From an uncultured Planctomycetaceae bacterium (GTDB taxonomy: Bacteria; Planctomycetota; Planctomycetia; Isosphaerales; Isosphaeraceae), in assembly GCA_963833985.1 (NCBI GenBank), contig CAWIAD010000002.1, forward strand, positions 4,064,001 through 4,128,000: a stretch of DNA of 64,000 bases, written 5' to 3'. Below, piece after piece: positions 8,058-32,800 of the stretch. Each line of letters opens with the position of its first letter. Position 1 is the first letter of the stretch. The notes beneath the pieces are model-generated. The model ran no database searches and was not told where the DNA came from. It saw only the letters and a program-made list of their open reading frames with translations. The position numbers and the translations under genes are program-made.

Positions 8058-9787
8058 CTACCGAGCCTTCTTGATCCGGAGGTTCCGGTATTCGACCACG
8101 TTGAGCTCGGACTGGAGCGCGAGCGGACCTTTGTCCGGGATGGTGAGGGTGGCTTCGAGCAGCTCGCCGTTACAGGTGCATCGCGCCTTTGTGCCGGTGA
8201 CGACCACCTCGATCGCATTCCAGTCGCCATCATTGTAGGACCTGAGGGTCTTGTAAGGGCCGACCCGCGGGTAGTCACGGATCTGAAGCTGGTGTGCGAA
8301 CGCCTTATCGCGCAGGTGCAGCCCGCTATTGGCGTTCCTGGAGGCGCGGAATTCCAGGCGGAGGGTGAAGTCGCCGTCATAAGACTCCACCGTGTCGATC
8401 TCGGCCATCTTGAGGGGCGTGTCCTTCGAGCCGTTGATCACGAGCATGCCGTCCCGGACCGCGAAACGGCGGTCCTCGGATGCCGTCTTCCCGGCCAGCT
8501 CGGTGCTGCCCTGCCGCCAGCCGGTCAGGTCCTTCCCGTTGAAGAGGGGCAGGAAACCCGGCTCAGCGGCGGGCGCGGCGGTGAGAGGAGCCGTGGCGAA
8601 GGGTCGCGCGGGTGCAGCTCCGGAGGGCGAGCCTGCGGAGGGTGCTGCGCCTGGTGCTGCAGCTGGCGGGCCCGGTCGCGATCCGGCGCCGCGGCCCTGC
8701 CCGATGGGACGGGGCGGGTTGGCGACGTGGGCGGCCACTTCCCTGGCGGCTCTGGTCTCCACGCCCGGTTTCTGGAGGAATCCGAGATCCCGAGCCCAGT
8801 CGATGAAGCGATACTGCCAGGTGCCGAAGGGTATGCCGTTGCGGTCGGTCAATCCGCCGGACATGCGGCTCCCATCCGGCAACGGGTCACCCGGGTGCCG
8901 TCCGTTCCCGTAAAGGTGCATCTCCACGTTCGGCACGCCGGCGGCCAGCATTGCCTGGTAGTAATCGAGGGTCCAGAAGGCGTGGACGCGGTCGCCGGCA
9001 CTGGCGCAGACGAGGAATGCGGGCGGGACGTCCTTCGGAACCACCGGCGCCGTGCGGTTGCGGGCGAAGGGCGTTGGGCCGGGGTAGATGAGGCCGACGA
9101 AGTCCGGCGCGAGGAAGTGCCGGCAAACGGGTCCGACGTGCCGTTGTTCGTCCTGTCCCAGTCGTCGTAGAGCAAGGCGGCCGGCGCAGCCAGCTCTGCG
9201 CCCGCGGAGAAGCCCATGACGCCGATCTTCCTGGGGTCGATGCCCCATTGCCTGGTGTAGGCGCGGACGACCCGGACGGCCTGCTGAGCGTCGTGGACGG
9301 CATCAACCTCGGCCACATAGCCGTCCGCGCGCAGCCGGTTCCGCAGGATGACCGTGTTGATGCCGTAATTGTAGAAGAAGGGGACGAAGTCGGCGGCCTC
9401 GCCACCCACGTTCAGCGTCCGGTGGCCACCTCCGGCGATGGCGATCACCGCGGTGCCCGTGTTGATGGACTTCTCCACGAGGTGGACTTCGATCGAGGGA
9501 TTGTGGATGGAGACGATGCTGGAGATCCGGCCGGGGACCGCCTGGCTCATGTGGTAAATCTCGGGCACGTGCAGCCTGTCAGCCTTCAGGTAGGGTGAAT
9601 CGGGCGGGAAGAGTGTGACCACGATGCCGCCGGGCAGGATGGCCTGGGGCGCGTACGGCCGGCCGGTGTCGGCCGCCGTCTTTGGCACGGACTGGGGTGC
9701 CGGCAGCGCGGGCAGCAAAGCCTTCTCCTGCGCCACCGCAGATGCGCCGAGGAAGGCGCAAACGGAGAACAGTGCTGTTCGTCTCAT
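8058..9787 (-). CDS. Secreted alpha/beta hydrolase fused to DUF1080 (3-keto-disaccharide hydrolase-like) domain (frameshift near 9110)
   Basis: Signal peptide MRRTALF...AQ; GIDPRKIGVMGFSAG nucleophile motif; Pro/Ala linker; LFNGKDLTGW...NSG...WN...LQSE...YRNLRIK. Confidence 0.85.
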
Positions 9788-9910
9788 CGGTTCTTGAACC
9801 TCTGTGTTTGTCGCAGTCGCCACACCACTGCCGCAGTTGCCGCGCAATGAGCACAGGGGTCATCTTACCGGGTCCTGGCTCGACCAGGGACACCCGGATG
9901 GCAACCAGAT

Positions 9911-12900
9911 TCAAGGCCGCTCGGCGACCAGACGGAAGCGGCCCTCGCCGTAGAGGAGGTAGTTGGCCCAGTCGGGGAGCTTCTGCTCCCGCAGCCTGGC
10001 GCGGGCGAGCGTCACGGCGTTTTCCAGCGTTTTGCCGACGGAGAGCTGTGTGTAGACCTCGGCGGAGAAGACCTGGGCGGCCTCGTCGTTCACGGTCCAG
10101 AAGGTTCCCAGGTAAGCCTCCGCGCCGGCACGCAGGAAGAACTCGGCGAACGAGGCGGCCTCGCTGGTCACCTCGCCGCGCACCCGGCCCGCCTGGCAGG
10201 CATTGACGAAGGCCACCCGCGGAAGTTCCAGGCCGTGCAGGTCGGCCAGGGTGAGCCGCTCGCCGCCGGCCAGCACCAGGCCGCTGCCGCTCTCGCCGGG
10301 ACCGGCGAAGTAGGCGTGTCCGCAGTAGTGCAGCAAGTCCGCTCCGGGCAGGGCCTCCCGCAGCGCAAGCTTGGTCGCCTCGCCTCCGCGCAGCACACGA
10401 AGCTTGACCCGTACCTGGAGTTGCCGGAGCAAGGCCTCGACGGCCCGGCCCTCCTCGTCGGCGCCGGGGAGGTTCTCCGTCGGGTCGATCACCAGCAGCA
10501 CGTGGAACTCCTGGGCCCGAGGCGGTCGTGCGAAGAGCCGGTCCACGGGTACTCCCGGCACGGCGAGCCTGCGGCTCAGGCCGGCGCCTGTGGCCGGCGC
10601 GCCAGAGCCCGGCGCAACGATCGTCTCGAACGGCAGGCGCGAAGACGCGACGTCGTGCACGATGACGACCCGGGCGCCGGCCGTGCGGGCGAGCATCTGC
10701 TCGGCCTGGTCGCCCAGGATCAACCGGGCCAGCGCCTGGCCGCGCGCTTGCAGGGAAGGTAGGTCCGGCGTACTCCGCTGGCCGGGACCGCAGCCCGCGG
10801 CCAGCCCGCAGAGCTCGGCTTCGCTCAGCGCCTGCCGCCGGAAGTCGACCACGGTACTGCCGGCCGGCGGGAGCACGGTCACCACAAGCTGGGCGTCTTC
10901 ATGGCTGACGTGCACGACGAGAGGCTCGTCGCGCGGGGGCTCGGCCAGCTCGGAGACCTCCTCGATCCGGGTGGTCAGCTTGACGCCCGGGTCGGCGGCG
11001 AGCAGATCGCGGAGGGCCTCGAAGCGCTGCACGTCGTGCTCGAACCAGGTGACGCTGGCGTGGCCGGCGAGCGCGCCCAGTGCGCTCAGCATCTCGCGCG
11101 CGGCCGGTCTGGCGTCCTCGGTGACGTTCCCGCCATAGGTCACCACGCCAACCCGCCGCAAGCCGTACTGCCGCGCCATGGCGGCCGTCTGGCGGGCCGC
11201 ATCGGCGACCTGTTTTTCGATGGCCCCGGCCTCCCTGACCGATCCCAGGGATGCCAGGTAGACCCAGTCGGCGTCGATACCCGAGCGGCTGGCGCTGACC
11301 AACCGTGAGCCGGAGCGGCGGACGGCGGACGCACGGCCGCCCGTGGCGCGATCGATCACGGCCGCGGCCCCTCCGAGTGGCACATCGTCAAAGCTGGCGA
11401 CGGCGATCGCGTCCAGCTCGTGCGCGCCAGCCACGCTGCCGTGAACCAGCTCCACAAGCAGCTTGCCGGAGGCGGCTCTGCTGTTCAGGTTCAGCAACCC
11501 GCGGAGGATGAGTGACGTGATGCGCACGGTGTCACGCGAGCGCAGGAGCTCTCGGTTCTGCGCCGCGGTCAGGCCGTTCCAGGCCATGGAAGCCTGGTCG
11601 GAGAGCAGGAGCGGGAGGCCGGCGGCCTTGATTGCCTGCGCCAGGCCTTCCAGAGAGACCGGGAGTCCGAGCTTGTCCCGGTACGGGTCGTGGTCCACGG
11701 TCTCGGCCAGGGTGCGAACGCGTTCCACGCCCACCCACGTGGCGTCCTTCATCCGGTCGGGAATCTCGCGGTCTTCCAGCAGGTCGGCCACGAGGGCCGC
11801 GGCCCCGCCGAAGCCGCCCACGACGTACAGCGGCTGGCCGATCTCGAGCGACCGCCAGGCCTCCTCGACCACACCCGGAAAGCGCCCCGTGTAGCCCTCG
11901 CCCGGCGGCTCGCGGCGCGGCTCGGCTGCGCCGCCGATGAGCACGCGCGCGGCGGTCGTCCGCGCCATCACGCGCCGCATGTCCGAAAGGTAAAGCGACG
12001 GGTGATGCGCGGCCTGCTCGCTGGCCGGCAGAATCGCCAGTGCGGCCACGTCGTCGAGTGACGCCAGGTGGTGCAAGGTCATCGGCACGCTCGACGGAAT
12101 CTCGTCGATGCGGCTGGACGCTGTGAGGTAGCTGTGAAGGAACTCCGCGGGGTGTGCGGCCGTCTGGTTGTAAGCCCGGATCAACTCGGCGAGCAGAAGT
12201 GTGTAGCCTTGCCCGGCGGCATTGTTCGTCACCATCGGGCGATAGTCGCCACCGTACGCGATGGCCGCCCCGGCCGAGATGAGCGTCCTGGCGATATGCA
12301 CGGTCAAGTCGACGAAGTGATGCCTGGTCCACCCTTCGGGCCCGTTCAGATCGGGACTGTCCGAGAGCGACATGGCCACCTGGAGCCCTTGCAAGGGTGC
12401 GAATCCCGGGCTGCCCGTGTCGCGGCTCAGCACATGACGGTAGGCCGTTGTGGGCGTGACGAGATGAAGGCGCGGATTGGCCGCCATCAACACCTGGCGT
12501 TCCTGGGTGGAAAGCTCCGGGTCCGGGTGCATCACAAGCTGGGGCGAAGCACTGCGCAAGGGGCCCTGGGCCATATCGAGCAGCTCGGGCGGGCGAATGA
12601 GGATGTCGGCTTCGGGCAGCCCGGCCGCCTCGCAGACGCGCACGGCCTCGCGCAGGAAGTGCACGGACCTCAGCCACTCGATCATGGCCTGGAGCACGAC
12701 CTGCCCCGCGGGGTCGTGCCCCTGGTTCCAGACCACGGTGGGGCTGTTCCCGCCGTAGGGGAGGCTCCTGCGCTCGCCCTTCTGGAGCAGCTCGACCGTG
12801 AGCGTGGGCAAGCCGTGCTTCTTGGCTGCGAGCAGCTCGCGCTGGCACCAGATCCGCGAGCTGTAAGAATCGCCCCGCACGGCGACGAACACGCCCCGGC

Positions 12901-13543
12901 TGGCCGCGAAGTCAATCTGTTCCTGAAGCGATTCGCCGGAGAGCAGCTCGGTCGTGTCGAAAAACGCGTTCGCCGTGGCGTTCGTCTTCGCGTAGTGGGC
13001 GATCTTCTCGGCGGCCTGCTGGGTGGGAACCAGGTCGGACTTGGCATGCGAGACGAACAGCGTGGTTTCCCTGCGGTCCCGGGACAGCAGCCGTGAGACC
13101 GCAAGCACGATCTCCAGCAGGGTCGACGCCCGGCGCGGCTGCGTCCCGTACAGCTCGGTGAGAACCAGCTTTCCGGGGAGCTCGGCCTCGGCGTTCCGCC
13201 AGACCTCGTCCACCGGTACGGGAAGCACGTGGCCAGGTCCGAGAAGCTCGTGCCAGCGGCGGATGCGCCGGATCGTCGCGTCCCGGTTCAGGGCGAAGGA
13301 GAACCTTCCCAGCACCGGGATCACCGCGACGGTTTCCGCGCAGTCCAGGTTCACGTGATCTGGATCAACCGCGCTGAGGATCGGGATTGATGCACCGAAG
13401 GCGAGCGGGTCCTGCACGGGACGCGTGAGGTTGTCGTAGAGGTCGAGCCCCAGGGAGGAGGCGGCGGCGCGTTCGCCCGGGTGGAAAGCGACGGTGAGAA
13501 CAACCAGGACGGGCCGCGCCGGAGCGTCGTTCGCTGTGGTCAT
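9911..13543 (-). CDS. Multidomain TIR-SLOG-macro-like-CHAT (caspase-like) protein, ~1210 aa
   Basis: TIR: LFVSHAKSD...FFDTTEL...YSSRIWCQRE. SLOG: IAYGGDYR...DMRRVM...VLIGG...PGVVEEA...PLYVVGGFGGAA. CHAT: LLHYCGH and VFVNAC-type motif (AFVNACQAG), YLGTFWTVND, W..YLLYG. One continuous ORF; start MTTAND at 13543. Confidence 0.8.
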   Translation of the reverse strand: MTTANDAPARPVLVVLTVAFHPGERAAASSLGLDLYDNLTRPVQDPLAFGASIPILSAVDPDHVNLDCAETVAVIPVLGRFSFALNRDATIRRIRRWHELLGPGHVLPVPVDEVWRNAEAELPGKLVLTELYGTQPRRASTLLEIVLAVSRLLSRDRRETTLFVSHAKSDLVPTQQAAEKIAHYAKTNATANAFFDTTELLSGESLQEQIDFAASRGVFVAVRGDSYSSRIWCQRELLAAKKHGLPTLTVELLQKGERRSLPYGGNSPTVVWNQGHDPAGQVVLQAMIEWLRSVHFLREAVRVCEAAGLPEADILIRPPELLDMAQGPLRSASPQLVMHPDPELSTQERQVLMAANPRLHLVTPTTAYRHVLSRDTGSPGFAPLQGLQVAMSLSDSPDLNGPEGWTRHHFVDLTVHIARTLISAGAAIAYGGDYRPMVTNNAAGQGYTLLLAELIRAYNQTAAHPAEFLHSYLTASSRIDEIPSSVPMTLHHLASLDDVAALAILPASEQAAHHPSLYLSDMRRVMARTTAARVLIGGAAEPRREPPGEGYTGRFPGVVEEAWRSLEIGQPLYVVGGFGGAAALVADLLEDREIPDRMKDATWVGVERVRTLAETVDHDPYRDKLGLPVSLEGLAQAIKAAGLPLLLSDQASMAWNGLTAAQNRELLRSRDTVRITSLILRGLLNLNSRAASGKLLVELVHGSVAGAHELDAIAVASFDDVPLGGAAAVIDRATGGRASAVRRSGSRLVSASRSGIDADWVYLASLGSVREAGAIEKQVADAARQTAAMARQYGLRRVGVVTYGGNVTEDARPAAREMLSALGALAGHASVTWFEHDVQRFEALRDLLAADPGVKLTTRIEEVSELAEPPRDEPLVVHVSHEDAQLVVTVLPPAGSTVVDFRRQALSEAELCGLAAGCGPGQRSTPDLPSLQARGQALARLILGDQAEQMLARTAGARVVIVHDVASSRLPFETIVAPGSGAPATGAGLSRRLAVPGVPVDRLFARPPRAQEFHVLLVIDPTENLPGADEEGRAVEALLRQLQVRVKLRVLRGGEATKLALREALPGADLLHYCGHAYFAGPGESGSGLVLAGGERLTLADLHGLELPRVAFVNACQAGRVRGEVTSEAASFAEFFLRAGAEAYLGTFWTVNDEAAQVFSAEVYTQLSVGKTLENAVTLARARLREQKLPDWANYLLYGEGRFRLVAERP

Positions 13544-14148
13544 TCCCACCCCCCGCGCCGGTATTCGGCGTCGCTGACGGAACGCGGCAGGCGCCGGCCT
13601 ACCGGTCTGGGCGCGTCCTGTCGCAACCATCCGGGGCCGGAGATGCCGAGATGGCTCCGCACCCCGGCACGCGTCCGGAAACCTCATAGAACGGTATAGT
13701 CGGACAGCCGATCGTGTCCAAGGAAAAACGCGCACGGTTTTCCGGTGCACGGTCTCTTTTCGGAGCCGCAACATGACGAGACGTGGTAGTCTGGCAGCGC
13801 CGGCACCAGGTGTGGAAGGTTGCGCTCCGGCCGTCGATCTCCTGTCGAGTTCGATCTGCCAGCGCGGCGCGGCCGAGGCACCAGCCGGGAATTTCGGACT
13901 GTGGACCTGTTTGTTGATTGCAGTTGTGTCTCTTCATCCGCGACCGTCCCGCGGCCCGCGCGATTGACGACCACCGGTCGGGGCCCCAGAATGATCATGC
14001 GCTGATCGCGTCTACCGGGGAATCGGGAGGATGCGTTCTGGAAAGCAAGTCCGCGACGACTCTGATCTCTGGGCGACTCCTCCGGTGAGTCTCTCCTTTG
14101 CTCCAGGTTCGAGCCACTCTCAATCTCATGAGAAAGATGGAGGTCCGA

Positions 14149-15131
14149 ATGATCGTGCGGCGCATCCTGGTTATCCTCGGCGCGGCCGTCCTCACCCTGA
14201 CCATGGTCCGGGTGACGACGGCGCAGAACGGCGACCAGAAGGCATCGGGTCTGGGGTTGTGTGCGAAGTGCGCCTTGCACATGACGCCGCAATGTCAGAA
14301 TGCCCTGGTGATCGACGCCGGCGGCCGGCGCCAGGTTTACCTGTTGAAAGACAACCAGGTCAGCAAGGCGTTTCACAAGGACGTGTGCAAGACCAGCGTG
14401 CCGATCGTGGTCGTGGGCCGGGTGGTCCGGGCTTCCGGGCCGCGAGCCGACGGCGTGGTGGTCCTCGGCGAGATCGAGCCTTCGAGCCTGGCCCTGGATG
14501 ATTGCGAAATCAACCCGGTGGTCACGCTGGGCGGCGTGGGCCAGTGCGCCAAGTGCAGCCTGAAGCAGTCCACGACGTGCGTCAACGTGATGACCTGCCA
14601 CCTGGACGCAAAGGACGTGACCTTCTGGCTGGCGGACAACGAGGTATCCAAGGCGTTCCACAAGACCATTTGCAAGTCCAGAGAGGTGATCCTCGCCACC
14701 GGCAAGCAGGAAGGGAAGGACGCTGCCGGCCACGAGATATTCACCCCGATCAAGCTTGAACGGGTCGTCTCCGAGCCAGCAAGCGTTCAGCCTTCAGCGG
14801 TCGAGCACGCAACGAAGCCGGTGGAAGCTCCTGTCGCGGCCGAAACACCGCTCCAGAAGTTGCAGTACGTGATGGGAAATGTCTGGTGCGAGCCTGCTTC
14901 AAGCACCGCGGACGTGATTGTCAGATCGTCGTGCAGTTTAGCGATGAAGGGAAGTGGCTGTATTACTGGCTGACCGATACGGACGCCAAGACGAAGATTC
15001 ACGCGGAGCTTTACGACGGCCAGACGCCGAGCAAGGCAGCATTCATGAAGGTGTCCGGAATCATCGTGCAGCCTGCCACCGAGCAGGCCGGCGGTCTGCT
15101 TTCCGCCTCGAAGTTCGAAGTCATCCACTGA
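14149..15131 (+). CDS. Exported protein with three CxxC...C...H repeat domains (DUF6370-like) (frameshift near 14890)
   Basis: GGAGG RBS and signal peptide; repeats GLCAKCALH..CQN..NQVSKAFHKDVC and GQCAKCSLK..CVN..NEVSKAFHKTIC; third divergent copy CxACFKH..CQ in ORF 14886..15131. Confidence 0.7.
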
Positions 15132-15192
15132 ACGATTCCGGGAGCGGTGGTTTCTGTTCTGTTCTTCCTTGTGTCCGAGGTCGAGCACGCTC

Positions 15193-16263
15193 ATGCGCAT
15201 CTTCATCAGCTACCGACGCGAGATCAGCCGCGATATCGCAGACAGGATCGATGAGCGGCTGGTCAGGAAGTACGGGCGCCAGTCCGTCTTCAAGGACGTG
15301 CATTCGATTCGCCCCGGGCAGGATTTCCGGAGCATCATCAACGGGGCCGTGTGTCGTTGCGACGTCCTGCTTGCGGTCATCGGACCGCGGTGGGTGACCG
15401 TCACGGACGACCACGGCAAGCGGCGGCTTGATTCCGAGAACGACTTCGTGCGACTGGAGATCAAGACGGCCCTGAAGGCGGGCATTCCGATCATCCCCCT
15501 GCGCGTCGACGAAGCGCCCGTGCCACGTGAGGAGGAGCTCCCCGCGACCCTCCAGTCTCTGGTCTATCGCAACGCGCTGCCCATTCGCCCCGACCCGGAT
15601 TTCGAGCGCGACATCAGCGATCTGCTGGGAACGCTCAAGAGCCTGGAGTCCGGCTCTCGAAATGTGGTGAAGCTGGTTGCGGCGTCTCTGGCGGTGCTTG
15701 CCTTGCTTGCGGCAGTGGCCCTCGCGGCCGTCTTCCACCCCTGGCAAGTCAGCGGAACGAAGGATCAATCCTCAGGGCTCCTCATCAAGACGACGGGCCG
15801 CGGTGACTCCGGGGGAGGAGCGGCTCCGGAGCTTCCCACCAGGGACCCCCAGCCACCCGTCCAGACGGCGGGGGAGAACGGTTCCACGGGTAAAACCGCG
15901 GCCATCCTGCTGGCGTCGGCAGCCGAGCTGCGGAAAGTGGAGGAGTCGATCGAGTGCAACGACCTGGGCGAGGCGCGCCACCTTTTGAAGGACCTGAAGT
16001 CGCGGTGCGCGGGCGACCCCCTGCCCACCTACTACGATGCCGTGGCTGTTCTCAAGCTCCAGGGCTGGACAGGAGAGCCGGAAAACCTGATCCAGGAAGG
16101 CCGGAAGCTGGAGCAGCAGGGCGGGGCATGCGGCGATCGGAGCAGGCTCGATCCGCTCCTCGAGAGCCTGCTGGCTTACCTCACTCCGGAAGACCAGTTG
16201 AAGCTCCAGGGCTTGCTCGGCAGGACGATCAAGTCATCCGCAACGCTCCCGGGCGCACCATGA
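15193..16263 (+). CDS. TIR-domain protein with single TM helix and C-terminal extracytoplasmic region
   Basis: MRIFISYRR...VFKDVHSIRPGQDF...VLLAVIGPRW...DFVRLEI (TIR_2 type, Glu present); TM LVAASLAVLALLAAVALAAVF. Confidence 0.88.
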   Translation: MRIFISYRREISRDIADRIDERLVRKYGRQSVFKDVHSIRPGQDFRSIINGAVCRCDVLLAVIGPRWVTVTDDHGKRRLDSENDFVRLEIKTALKAGIPIIPLRVDEAPVPREEELPATLQSLVYRNALPIRPDPDFERDISDLLGTLKSLESGSRNVVKLVAASLAVLALLAAVALAAVFHPWQVSGTKDQSSGLLIKTTGRGDSGGGAAPELPTRDPQPPVQTAGENGSTGKTAAILLASAAELRKVEESIECNDLGEARHLLKDLKSRCAGDPLPTYYDAVAVLKLQGWTGEPENLIQEGRKLEQQGGACGDRSRLDPLLESLLAYLTPEDQLKLQGLLGRTIKSSATLPGAP

Positions 16264-16286
16264 ATTGCCCTGCGTTTGCGAGACAT

Positions 16287-17816
16287 TCACCGCTCCAGGG
16301 ACTGGTCGACCTCCGGGAAGAGAGCAGCAATGCTCGGCTTGGTCACCTTGCCCATGCTGTTGCGCGGCAATTCGTCCAGGAGCAGTAGCCGGGTGGGGAT
16401 CTTGTAGGGAGCCAGCCGTTCGCCGGCCCAGGCCCGCAGCGCGGCCAGCGTGAACTGCTGGCCCTGGGAGAGCACCAGGGCCGCACCCACGCGCTGTCCC
16501 CATTCCGCGTCAGGCAGTCCCACCACGGCCGCCTCGCGCACCGCCGAGTGCCCGCGCAGCACTTCCTCGATCTCCAGGGCGGAGACCTTGTATCCTCCCG
16601 TCTTGATGATATCCACGCTGTTGCGGCCGAGGATCCGGAAGTAACCGTCCTCCACCTCGGCGATGTCCCCGGTACGGAACCAGCCGGCGCGGAACGCCGC
16701 GCTGGTGGCCTCGGGCCGGTGCCAGTATTCCCGGAAGACCGAGGGCCCCCGGACCTCGATCTCGCCGGGCGTTCCAGCCGCGACCTCCTGACCCTGCTCG
16801 TCCACGAGCCGGACGTCCACTCCGGGGAGCGGAACTCCCACCGAGCCCGCACGCCGTTCGCCGTGCAGCGGATTCGAAAGCGCCATGCCGATCTCGGTCA
16901 TGCCGTAGCGCTCCAGCAGCACCTGGCCGCTGATCGATTGCCACTCCTCGAGCAGGCTCACCGGCAGGGCCGCCGAGCCGCTCACCATGAGCCGCAGCGC
17001 GTGGCAGCCGGCCGAAAGCTCTACCTGCCGCGCGGGCTCGCAGGCATGCCAGGCGGCGATGAGCCGGCTATAAATGGTGGGCACAGCCATGAAGACCGTG
17101 AGCGCGCCGCCGGCGATGACCTCCCAGACGGCCTGGGCGTCGAACTGCGGGTGGATGGTCACGCAGGCGCCCGACCACAGAGCGCAGGTGAGCACGTTGA
17201 TGATGCCGTGAACGTGGTGCAGGGGCAGGACCAGAAGCGTGTGATCGGCAGCCTGCCACTGCCAGGCCTCGACCAGCGTGGCGACCTGGGCCTGAATGTT
17301 CCCGTGGGTGATGACCACCCCCTTGGGACGGCTCGTCGTGCCGCTGGTGTAGAGGATCAGCGCGTCTCGGTTCGGCGCGAGCACGGGCAAGGCCGGCGTG
17401 CCCGCATCGGCGTCCAGCAGCTCCGAGGTTTGCAGGAAGCGCAGGCCGCGCGGCGCGGCGATCGGCCCCAGCTTGCCGGCCAGGTCCGGAGTGGCGATCG
17501 CGACCGATGCGGCGGAGTCCTCGACCACATACGCCAGCTCCGCCGCGGGGTGCGAAACCGCCAGTGGCACGGCCACGCCGCCGGCCCGCCAGACGCCCCA
17601 CTGCACCGCCACGTGGTGGAAGCCGGGGGGAACCAGGAAGGCGACGCGCTCGCCCCGCAGATCGTCCGTTCCGGCGAGCAGCCGCGCCGCCACGCGGGCG
17701 CTTGCGGCGAGCAGGTCGGCGTAGCGATAGGTCCCCTCGGGCGCGGAGACGGCAATGCGGCTGGCCTGGGTTGCCGCACGGGCCGCGAGGGGAAAGCCAT
17801 CGGCATGGGCACTCAT
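16287..17816 (-). CDS. Acyl-CoA synthetase (malonyl-CoA synthetase MatB/ACSF3-like)
   Basis: YTSGTTSRPKG, ERYGMTE, WFRTGD, GYKVSALEIE and LPRNSMGKV. Confidence 0.9.
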   Translation of the reverse strand: MSAHADGFPLAARAATQASRIAVSAPEGTYRYADLLAASARVAARLLAGTDDLRGERVAFLVPPGFHHVAVQWGVWRAGGVAVPLAVSHPAAELAYVVEDSAASVAIATPDLAGKLGPIAAPRGLRFLQTSELLDADAGTPALPVLAPNRDALILYTSGTTSRPKGVVITHGNIQAQVATLVEAWQWQAADHTLLVLPLHHVHGIINVLTCALWSGACVTIHPQFDAQAVWEVIAGGALTVFMAVPTIYSRLIAAWHACEPARQVELSAGCHALRLMVSGSAALPVSLLEEWQSISGQVLLERYGMTEIGMALSNPLHGERRAGSVGVPLPGVDVRLVDEQGQEVAAGTPGEIEVRGPSVFREYWHRPEATSAAFRAGWFRTGDIAEVEDGYFRILGRNSVDIIKTGGYKVSALEIEEVLRGHSAVREAAVVGLPDAEWGQRVGAALVLSQGQQFTLAALRAWAGERLAPYKIPTRLLLLDELPRNSMGKVTKPSIAALFPEVDQSLER

Positions 17817-29835: not shown

Positions 29836-32800
29836 CTACTTTGTGCTGGATATCGTCAGGAGGTGATCCACTTCCGCCCAGAGCTGCTGCCACGCCTTGC
29901 GTTCGGGCTCGGGAAGCTTCGCCAGCGCGGCGGAGTCGCGAATGCCGGCCAGGTCGGAATCGACTCGCCAGTGCTGGAGCGTCGGCCGTACCAGCGTGCG
30001 CGCCTGGGCATCCCCCACATCCAGCACCTTCGTCCAGGCGGCCAGCTCGGCTTTCAGCCAGTCGAGGGCCTGGGCGCGGAGCCTTGCCCGGGTGGCGTCG
30101 TCGGGCGGCGGCTCGTCCTTGTCCGCTCCGGCACCGGCCAGGGCCGCAGCGCAGGCGGCGTTGTAACGATGACCGTTCTGGCGGTCATCGCCGAGTTTGG
30201 GATCGGCCGCCAGCGCCTCGGCCCAGAACCGGGCAGCGGAAGCGTGGCGCTTCGTGTCGTAGCACATCTGGGCGATGGCCAGGCGGTCGACGTTGTCGCG
30301 GGGTTTTTCTTCGCCCCTGAGCAGCGCCGGCAGCCGATCCGCCAGCGCCGCCAACCGCTCTGCCTGCTGGACCCACTGCGCCGAGGGGTATCGCCAGCCG
30401 GGCTGCCTGGTACCCAGCTCGTGCCCCTTGCGATATTCCGCGAGCGACCCGTCGTAGTCGCCCTGGCTCCGGAGGCAATAACCCAGGTTGCAGTGGGCCT
30501 CGGCATAGCCGGGCTGGAGCCGGATCGCGGTGCGGTATGCGGCGATGGCCTCGTCCAACTTCCCCTGGGCACTCAGAGCGATGCCGAGGTTGTAGTGGGC
30601 CCCGGCGAGGTCGGGCTGGAGCCGGACCGCGGTGCGGTATGCGGCGACGGCCTCGTCCCACTTCCCCTGGCCCCTCAGAGCGAAGCCGAGGTTGTTGTGG
30701 GCGTTGGCGAGGTCGGGCTGGAGCCGGATCGCGGTGCGGCATGCGGCGACGGCCTCGTCCCTCTTACCCTGGTTCGCCAGGGCCAAGCCGAGGTTGTTGT
30801 GGGCCAGGGCATAGTCGGGCTGGAGCCGGATCGCGGTGCGGTATGCGGCGCTGGCCTCGTCCCACTTACCCTGGGCCGCCAGGGCGAAGCCGAGGTTGTT
30901 GTGGGCCGCGGCGAGGTCGGGCTGGAGCCGGATCGCGGTGCGGTATGCGGCGACGGCCTCGTCCCTCTTACCCTGGGCCCCCAGGGTGTTGCCCAGGTTG
31001 CAGTGGGCCTTGGCGAGGTCGGGCTGGAGCCGGATCGCGGTGCGGTATGCGGCGACGGCCTCGTCCCTCTTACCCTGGTGCGCCAGGGCGATGCCGAGGT
31101 TGTAGTGGGCCCCGGCGAGGTCGGGCTGGAGCCGGATGGCGGTGCGGAATGCGGCGACGGCCTCGTCCAACTTACCCTGGTCCGCCAGAGCGGTGCCGAG
31201 GTTGTTGTGGGCCAGGGCATAGTCGGGCTGGAGCCGGATCGCGGTGCGGTATGCGGCGACGGCCTCGTCCCTCTTACCCTGGTTCGCCAGGGCCAAGCCG
31301 AGGTTGTTGTGGGCCAGGGCGAGGTCGGGCTGGAGCCGGATCGCGGTGCGGTATGCGGCGACGGCCTCGTCCAACCTACCCTGGTCCGTCAGAGCGGTGC
31401 CGAGGTTGGCGTGGGCCACGCCGTCGTCAGGCTTCCGCTGTATCGCCGTGCGGGCGGCGTTGACGGCCCGCTCCAGGATCGGCGCCGCGTCGTCGGCCCG
31501 GCCATTCTCCTTCAAGTAGTGCCCCAGGCAGGACAGGTGCCCCGCGTTCTCCGGCCGTCGCTCCGTCAGGTCGCGGAAGACCGCCTCGGCCTCGGCGCCG
31601 CGGCCCATCCGCTCGAGCAGGTGGGCCAGCTCATGGGCCGTCTCGGGGCGCAGCGCGCGGGCCGCCGTGTAGTACCGCACCGCCTCCTCGCGCGGGCGGC
31701 CGCAGACTGTCCAGGGCAACAGCCAGTGAGTAATTGACCCAGACGTCGCCGGGATGGCGGCCGGCCGCGGCACGCAGCAGGGCCACGGCGGATTCGGCCT
31801 GGCCGATGTCCGCCAGGGTATTGCCGAGCAGCACGGCCGTGGGTGCAGGTAGCCCGGCCGACTCGGGAGCGCTAGCCAGGGCCTTGAGCGCCTCGGCCTG
31901 CGGCTTGCGGTCCTCCGCCAGCAGGATCGTGCGCACGCGGTCGCGATACGGCTCCGGGTCCGCCAGCCGCGCTGTCTCCATCGGCTGCCGCCAGGCGGCC
32001 ACGGGGCGATGCGCCCCGCGGCGCACGGCCGACCAGTCGTCGAGAAAAGCGCTCACCTCGACCACGACGGACTCGGCCTGACGCCCCAGCCGCCGGGCGA
32101 ACTCGGCGGCCTCGAGCTTCTCCAGGTCCAGTTCCGCGGCCTGGAAGGCGGTGGCGTAAGCGGCGTCTGTCCCCTCAAGGCCGACGTCCTGTTGATTGGC
32201 CCGGATCTCGACCAGCTCCTGCCGCAACCTGGCCGTCCGTTCGGCCGCGTCGAGCCCGGCCTGGAGCTCGGCGTGCAGGGCCTTAACCTCCGGCCCCTGC
32301 TCCTCGACGCGCTCCAGCGCCGCCAGGGCGTCGTGCCACGGGCCCGGGTCGGCGGCATCGCTCCGGGCCTTGCGCAGCAACGCCGTGGTCTCGGCGAGCA
32401 ACTGGTTCTTGTGTGCGGCGCGGGCCTGTCGCTGCTGGAACAGGTACGTGAAGGCCAGTCCGCCGGTGGTCGTCAGCACCAGCAGCGAGGCCGCCAGGCC
32501 CACCTGGAACCGCCGCGCCCGGCGTTCGGCACGAGCGCGGCTGTTCGCCTCGGCGGCCGTGCGGGTGGCCTCTTCGGCGCGTGCCGTCTCGGCGGCGCGG
32601 GCCAGTTCGGCGGCACGCAGCCGGTCCTGCACGCCGGCCAGATGATCACCCATCCGCTCGGCCACGGCCGAGGCGGTATGCGGCCGACCTTCCGGCTCGA
32701 CCGCCAGGCAATCCCGCGCCAGGGCAATCAGCTCTGCGTCCGCGCCGCAGCCGGCCAGCCGGCCCAGCGCATCAGCGGTATCGCCCCGGCCCGCCTTGCG

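Follow-up and report, generated by a model that had tools for sequence, protein, structure and literature searches.

In a 64,000-nucleotide stretch of DNA from an uncultured Planctomycetaceae bacterium (contig CAWIAD010000002.1 of assembly GCA_963833985.1, positions 4,064,001 to 4,128,000; hereafter the window), one gene encodes P0001, a protein of 1210 residues in which a predicted TIR-like domain, a TIR domain, a SLOG domain, a macro fold and a CHAT protease share a single chain. Its probable role is that of a switch, thrown by a signal, in immunity or cell death. By analogy with Thoeris and SAVED-CHAT we favour, tentatively, a CHAT cysteine protease that would be gated by the SLOG domain and serve immunity or programmed cell death, the chain's own TIR being an accessory. 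The family keeps its SLOG and CHAT residues nearly invariant and has repeatedly lost the catalytic glutamate of the TIR, which supports this arrangement. The layout of the gene is as follows.

9911..13543, minus strand: P0001 gene, a single open frame for a TIR-like/TIR/D3/SLOG2/macro/CHAT protein
13079..13516, minus strand: N-terminal α/β domain (residues 10–155), predicted degenerate TIR-like fold
12668..13072, minus strand: TIR domain (residues 158–292), with Glu236 at the catalytic position (codon 12836–12838)
12419..12631, minus strand: D3, a small conserved α/β domain (residues 305–375) that matches no named family
11474..12394, minus strand: SLOG cluster2 domain (residues 384–690), with R523, E560 and E561 near-invariant
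10979..11470, minus strand: macro-fold (M17-N-like) domain (residues 692–855)
10520..10936, minus strand: pre-catalytic part of the CHAT region (residues 870–1008), with an HD...PFE motif
9929..10519, minus strand: CHAT catalytic domain (Pfam), with His1076 (10316–10318) and Cys1116 (10196–10198)

Domains and residue conservation

How far do profile and fold searches bear out the domains that the original prediction had named? Pfam assigns residues 384–666 to SLOG cluster2 (PF18163, LD_cluster2; E 1e-38, 133.7 bits against a cut-off of 25.3) and residues 933–1199 to CHAT (113 bits, cut-off 24). The TIR_2 match at residues 163–242 falls under the Pfam cut-off, and the predicted glutamate is present; the macro, or M17-N, fold was matched by both Foldseek and VIA. 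All four assignments thus stand. The top Protein Data Bank (PDB) profile match of the CHAT domain is 8tl0 (E 4.5e-7), a CHAT protein that we take to be SAVED-CHAT; single-sequence PDB searches with the SLOG and CHAT segments returned nothing meaningful.

The N-terminal domain has a strand and helix order that resembles TIR, within the part of the predicted model with high predicted local distance difference test scores, and an ESM Atlas search with it returned TIR_2 clusters at 0.88–0.90. Profile–profile comparison of this domain or of D3 with TIR gave a probability of about 1% or less, which is not significant. Fold searches with residues 1–385 yielded mostly TIR itself or poorly superposing Rossmann folds, so the folds of residues 10–155 and 305–375 are those predicted by the model. 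Judged from the model, residues 10–155 are probably a degenerate, non-catalytic TIR-like fold that lacks the glutamate. D3, also seen in the predicted model, carries the conserved motifs RPPELLD and HPDPEL and recurs in a stand-alone TIR-SLOG2 family.

Which residues does the family keep? We compared 176 chains that contain D3, SLOG and CHAT, the query and one duplicate pair included. His1076 and Cys1116, the predicted CHAT dyad, are each retained in 175, as are R523 and E560 of the SLOG domain; E561 is retained in 174, and E973 of the CHAT region in all 176. The TIR glutamate, on the other hand, is present in 147. Elsewhere it is replaced by Asp, Ala, Gln or other residues, often with decay of the surrounding TIR motifs. 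Among 78 full-length representatives at 50% identity it is kept in 54 and missing from 24. Parsimony counts at least 20 changes of its state on a 175-tip tree, against a mean of 26 for shuffled labels, so the losses lie scattered over the tree. We conclude that the conserved core runs from SLOG to CHAT, and that many lineages can do without the chain's own signal enzyme; the claim that the chain necessarily makes its own signal is not supported in that form. A comparison with stand-alone relatives, in which the glutamate is present in 21 of 21, was dropped as proof: that set had been chosen by TIR score, and two of its rows belong to the fused clade and are truncated.

The macro domain was proposed as a second receptor. 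Canonical ADP-ribose-binding macro domains carry an adenine-contacting Asp, an NAAN motif and two glycine loops. Here the glycine loops are largely kept (Gly725 of loop 1 in 166 of the 176), the NAAN motif is absent, and position 703 is Asp in 47 chains and Ser in 94, including the query. The domain is predicted from these residues to be non-catalytic. It also travels with CHAT in lipase-macro-CHAT proteins, and a neighbour that consumes nicotinamide adenine dinucleotide (NAD) stands at only 3 of the 15 loci where macro-CHAT follows a lipase or an FHA domain. We do not accept it as a proven second receptor.

Fusion history and gene neighbourhoods

Could the chain be an artefact that joins separate TIR-SLOG and CHAT genes, an assembly error the original prediction had itself raised? 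Among the matches listed (the best 120 of 138, query included, from a search that covered proteins up to 2118 residues), 112 of the 119 homologs other than the query align with 98% or more of its length, at 40–64% identity. Named records place full-length relatives in Planctomycetota, Verrucomicrobiota, Myxococcota/Deltaproteobacteria, Gammaproteobacteria and Acidobacteriota. Since they span many sources and taxa, a chimera is ruled out and the single uninterrupted chain is upheld. The gene is rare and its distribution patchy, which we count in favour of a SLOG-gated CHAT. None of 100 genomes of the same family, five of them congeners, holds a full-length match, and one holds the CHAT part only; among 300 genomes of the phylum the N-terminal half was matched in six, one of which is of the full-length type.

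Both halves also occur apart. The N-terminal half forms a stand-alone family of about 680 residues (P0227 and P0230–P0259), and a two-gene TIR + SLOG2 operon (L013:15093-17239, L014:1-2243) lies in the same island as a full-length gene; neither form of TIR-like/TIR/D3 plus SLOG2 has a PADLOC or NCBIfam membership. The macro-CHAT half follows LCAT/PGAP1-like hydrolases or, in one case, an FHA domain, so that a lipase-like domain or FHA takes the place of TIR-SLOG. These proteins include a family of about 1050 residues combining α/β-hydrolase, M17-N (macro) and CHAT (L034, L035, L038, L041-L044, L046, L047, L049, L053), of which we found no description in the literature searched. The His–Cys dyad is intact in 14 of 14 such proteins, and SIR2 genes adjoin them in L038 (as SIR2-CHAT), L047 and L053.

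When a FastTree tree was built from the TIR-D3-SLOG region, with a stand-alone member as root, every fused protein fell into one clade (support 0.915), in which three shorter proteins are nested; this is consistent with a single fusion event. Members have since gained a class-3 lipase (in one case with an amidase), a C14 caspase (four proteins), DUF7379, an N-terminal nSTAND1 or ParA-like ATPase, or a C-terminal calcineurin-like phosphoesterase. The member with both amidase and lipase is a 1964-residue amidase-lipase-TIR-SLOG-macro-CHAT protein (L056:7448-13339) in a metagenome-assembled record labelled Akkermansia muciniphila. Another homolog (L008:3747-7357) is split into separate frames, by frameshift or as a pseudogene, amid three TIR genes and a kinase.

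If the family serves immunity or cell death, what lies beside its genes? A chosen subset of open reading frames (55 + 71 sequences) was scanned at 29 of the 31 full-length loci; L003 and L009 had too little flank. At 16 of the 29 a separate TIR, C14, CHAT, lipase_3 or patatin gene lies within about 6.5 kb (TIR at 8, C14 caspase at 6, lipase_3 at 4). The background, 22 other matches to five such families in the 10.16 Mb of the window genome, is about 3% per 13 kb, and the excess supports a role in immunity or cell death. Four further loci have a STAND-nuclease, a DUF7379 lipase-like gene or an FtsH-type ternary system nearby. An immune or cell-death context, in keeping with the defence role that the original prediction proposed, is thus found around relatives; in this genome the gene lies outside any classical defence island. 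Two loci are unusual: at L048:1814-13498 a lipase-fused member with a dead TIR lies directly downstream of the FtsH-type ternary system (fvmX7, MoxR, ivWA), and at L018:2858-19802 two Roc-COR proteins (one with TIR), a patatin, a lipase and three tandem FGE-sulfatase-like genes surround the homolog.

In the window itself the P0001 gene sits among metabolic genes, with DUF1559-type genes, which suggest a planctomycete host, also among its neighbours, and no PADLOC-level system was found. Two genes stand next to it.

14098..14973, plus strand: gene for a DUF6370 protein, a divergent neighbour with a hydrophobic N-terminal segment
15193..16263, plus strand: membrane TIR gene (TIR_2 E 1.5e-12, Pfam), with one membrane helix and a C-terminal domain

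The membrane TIR keeps its glutamate (DFVRLE) and is one of only five other TIR_2 sites in the 10.2-Mb genome, so its position just 1.6 kb away is unlikely to be due to chance. Similar TIRs lie downstream of the relatives L008 and L024. The membrane TIR is a candidate in-trans signal source. The block of about 9750–16330 that holds the three genes has no DNA match in the five congeners except one of 33 bases. The genes that flank it do match there, at unlinked places, so empty-site synteny is not demonstrable.

Elsewhere in the window (29836-31773, minus strand), 16 kb from the P0001 gene, lies a TPR protein with a Pfam match to TPR-S (sensor) at its N-terminus. In the same genome a TIR_2 match has immediately behind it a CHAT match that contains an internal TGA (G000:C2:4222288-4223800), and the sole C14 caspase match has a CHAT match about 5 kb away, a possible protease pair (G000:C2:1829872-1836575).

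Comparison with known systems

Is P0001 a variant of a described system? It has the glutamate-bearing TIR of any Thoeris type, but as a single open reading frame it is not an operon of separate genes. Type I Thoeris (ThsB TIR plus ThsA SIR2-SLOG) likewise has a TIR with catalytic glutamate and a SLOG joined to an effector, and there the SLOG binds the TIR-made signal, according to the accessible part of 10.64898/2025.12.03.692087. It consists, however, of two genes with a SIR2 effector, whereas P0001 is one chain with SLOG cluster2 and a CHAT protease, and has no SIR2 and no ThsA/STALD profile match at E up to 1. P0001 also lacks the pairing of transmembrane helices with a ligand-binding macro domain that marks type II. 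Type III (ThcB) similarly combines several TIR folds with SLOG, and the ThcB4 profile reaches 30.3 bits over residues 106–251 of P0001 (cut-off 220). In the available text of PMC13276650, type III is a multi-gene system with SMF/DprA-type SLOG and no CHAT is described; P0001, in contrast, joins LD_cluster2 SLOG and CHAT in one chain. Type IV, or Tianpeng, also couples TIR to a caspase-fold protease, encoded separately in the accessible portions of 10.1101/2024.10.24.620036 and 10.1101/2024.12.27.630466. The type IV protease gene lacks SLOG and macro, whereas the CHAT of P0001 follows both, and Pfam finds no Peptidase_C14 match in P0001.

SAVED-CHAT resembles P0001 in the fusion of a nucleotide-binding domain to CHAT, and C14 caspases beside or within some relatives recall its partner, PCaspase, which ligand-gated SAVED-CHAT activates (10.1101/2023.06.23.546230, accessible part). 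Its ligand is a cyclic oligoadenylate, whereas the putative ligand of P0001 would be NAD-derived; neither Pfam nor PADLOC finds SAVED in P0001, and no CRISPR link was seen. As a CHAT protease P0001 exceeds the profile cut-off and has the dyad, but the Borvo BovA profile scores 19.6 bits over about 120 CHAT residues, not over its full length. The first 680 residues of P0001 have the architecture of stand-alone TIR-like/TIR/SLOG cluster2 (PF18163) proteins, which lack the macro-CHAT half. The Pfam text for PF18163, after Burroughs et al. 2015, reportedly mentions one active and one inactive TIR, and patatin; that survey is said to have defined the SLOG clusters, the TIR-TIR-SLOG2 half being already noted.

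We conclude that P0001 is outside every Thoeris type and SAVED-CHAT. PADLOC and NCBIfam gave weak single-domain matches only (BovA, PDC-S66, ThcB4), so P0001 is not catalogued in those releases, in line with the original remark that the architecture was unrecognised. No published description of TIR-SLOG2-macro-CHAT was found in the accessible parts of PMC9503650, PMC7159879, PMC13276650, PMC8195603, PMC6459960, 10.1101/2024.10.24.620036, 10.64898/2025.12.03.692087, 10.1101/2024.12.27.630466 and 10.1101/2023.06.23.546230; the 2015 SLOG-cluster survey, Burroughs and Aravind 2020, the type III Thoeris primary paper and the supplements (bioRxiv ones such as Table S1 of 10.64898/2025.12.03.692087 included) lie outside this search and may list it. 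The fusion family is real and conserved, and apparently undescribed.

Mechanism and competing explanations

How might such a protein work? The observed basis is the order and folds of its domains, the conservation of residues, the history of the fusion, the patchy distribution and the gene neighbourhoods; the functional steps follow Thoeris and SAVED-CHAT precedent, and P0001 would act like an effector of either, built from familiar parts. An invasion or stress cue would activate a TIR, which might be the chain's own or might be encoded separately, like the membrane TIR next door, and this TIR would convert NAD+ to an ADP-ribose-type messenger. Binding of this messenger by SLOG2 would cause oligomerization or a conformational change, which the macro fold, acquired along with CHAT, would pass on as a non-catalytic hinge or a second site of binding. 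CHAT would then cleave general targets or co-encoded or fused pro-effectors (C14 caspase, class-3 lipase, patatin, amidase), much as SAVED-CHAT activates PCaspase; we count the C14 caspases near six loci and within four proteins in favour of such cleavage. The chain's own TIR might amplify the signal as an accessory, or deplete NAD as a second output, and can be lost.

Several observations weigh against this account. Asp replaces the glutamate in 13 of 28 non-Glu tree rows (29 before a duplicate was dropped) and may retain some activity, and alignment errors may affect highly divergent rows. A single genome served as control for the neighbourhoods, and several of the loci are kin. No separate TIR appears among the scanned neighbours of the TIR-dead loci L026, L048, L052 and L056, so these four show no signal source in trans. 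The scarcity of SIR2 beside lipase- or FHA-macro-CHAT genes counts here too, as does the lack of a caspase or lipase partner near the gene in the window. Finally, SLOG domains include hydrolases as well as sensors (PMC9503650, accessible part), and the conserved SLOG Arg and Glu residues would fit either.

Might one chain do everything, in a strict form of the original prediction: sense the invader, make the messenger with its own TIR, bind it with SLOG and macro, and kill the cell through CHAT with no other gene? The fusion itself stood, and the query's own clade keeps the TIR glutamate, as do most chains; 9 of the 29 loci have no immune neighbour of any scanned type, and nSTAND1 and ParA-like sensor modules are fused to some members. 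Yet the glutamate is missing from nearly a third of the diverse members that retain SLOG and CHAT, the catalytic and adenine-binding motifs of the macro domain are eroded, and separate TIR genes occur near eight loci and in the window. We consider this strict version unlikely; the TIR as necessary source and the macro receptor are the parts that found no support. We think it equally improbable that no diffusible messenger exists, the two TIR folds acting as homotypic adaptors that join the chain to other TIR proteins, or an upstream protease as activator, with CHAT switched on by proximity or cleavage and SLOG a signal-degrading or base-releasing co-effector. The top structural matches of the TIR do include the adaptors MyD88, MAL/TIRAP and the IL-1 receptor family, but fold ranks among TIRs fail to separate adaptors from enzymes. 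The N-terminal domain without glutamate, the frequent upstream caspase or trypsin, or fused lipase, at TIR-dead loci, and the mostly absent NAD enzyme beside lipase-macro-CHAT genes would all suit adaptors; the pattern of Glu, Ser165, Asp170 and Cys233 kept in most chains, and the receptor role of the best-studied defence SLOG, would not.

Less probable still is a protease that answers to NAD metabolites in the development or stress signalling of large-genome bacteria (Planctomycetota, Verrucomicrobiota, Myxococcota) and has nothing to do with phage. The metabolic surroundings without a PADLOC-level system, the 11 CHAT matches in the genome, and the weak match of one relative to the CHAT protein HetF would agree with it. 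Patchy presence, lack of conserved synteny, and fast swapping of lipase, caspase, STAND and phosphoesterase modules are instead typical of conflict systems.

What would a SLOG-gated CHAT mean? The literature searched yielded no SLOG- or macro-gated CHAT protease. The systematic Thoeris survey was designed to leave out TIR proteins that stand alone, so this fusion class may be a blind spot; 'CHAT' occurs zero times in the accessible part of its text (10.64898/2025.12.03.692087). A far-reaching version, which we hold to be doubtful, is a self-contained immune circuit in one polypeptide: its TIR would make a new ADP-ribose-derived messenger, SLOG cluster2 and macro would read it, and CHAT as initiator would cleave interchangeable pro-effectors (caspase, lipase, amidase, patatin). 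If true, it would be a bacterial cascade from TIR to initiator to executioner and would give SLOG cluster2 its first ligand. An NAD-metabolite-gated protease could double as a reporter. Natural variants are at hand for comparison, namely TIR-dead, lipase-, caspase-, STAND- or phosphoesterase-fused, and split two-gene forms. The family thus offers a handle on the SLOG cluster2 ligand, on whether a signal maker and its receptor can operate in a single chain, and on whether caspase cascades also take their input from TIR signals, as they do from cyclic oligoadenylates in SAVED-CHAT.

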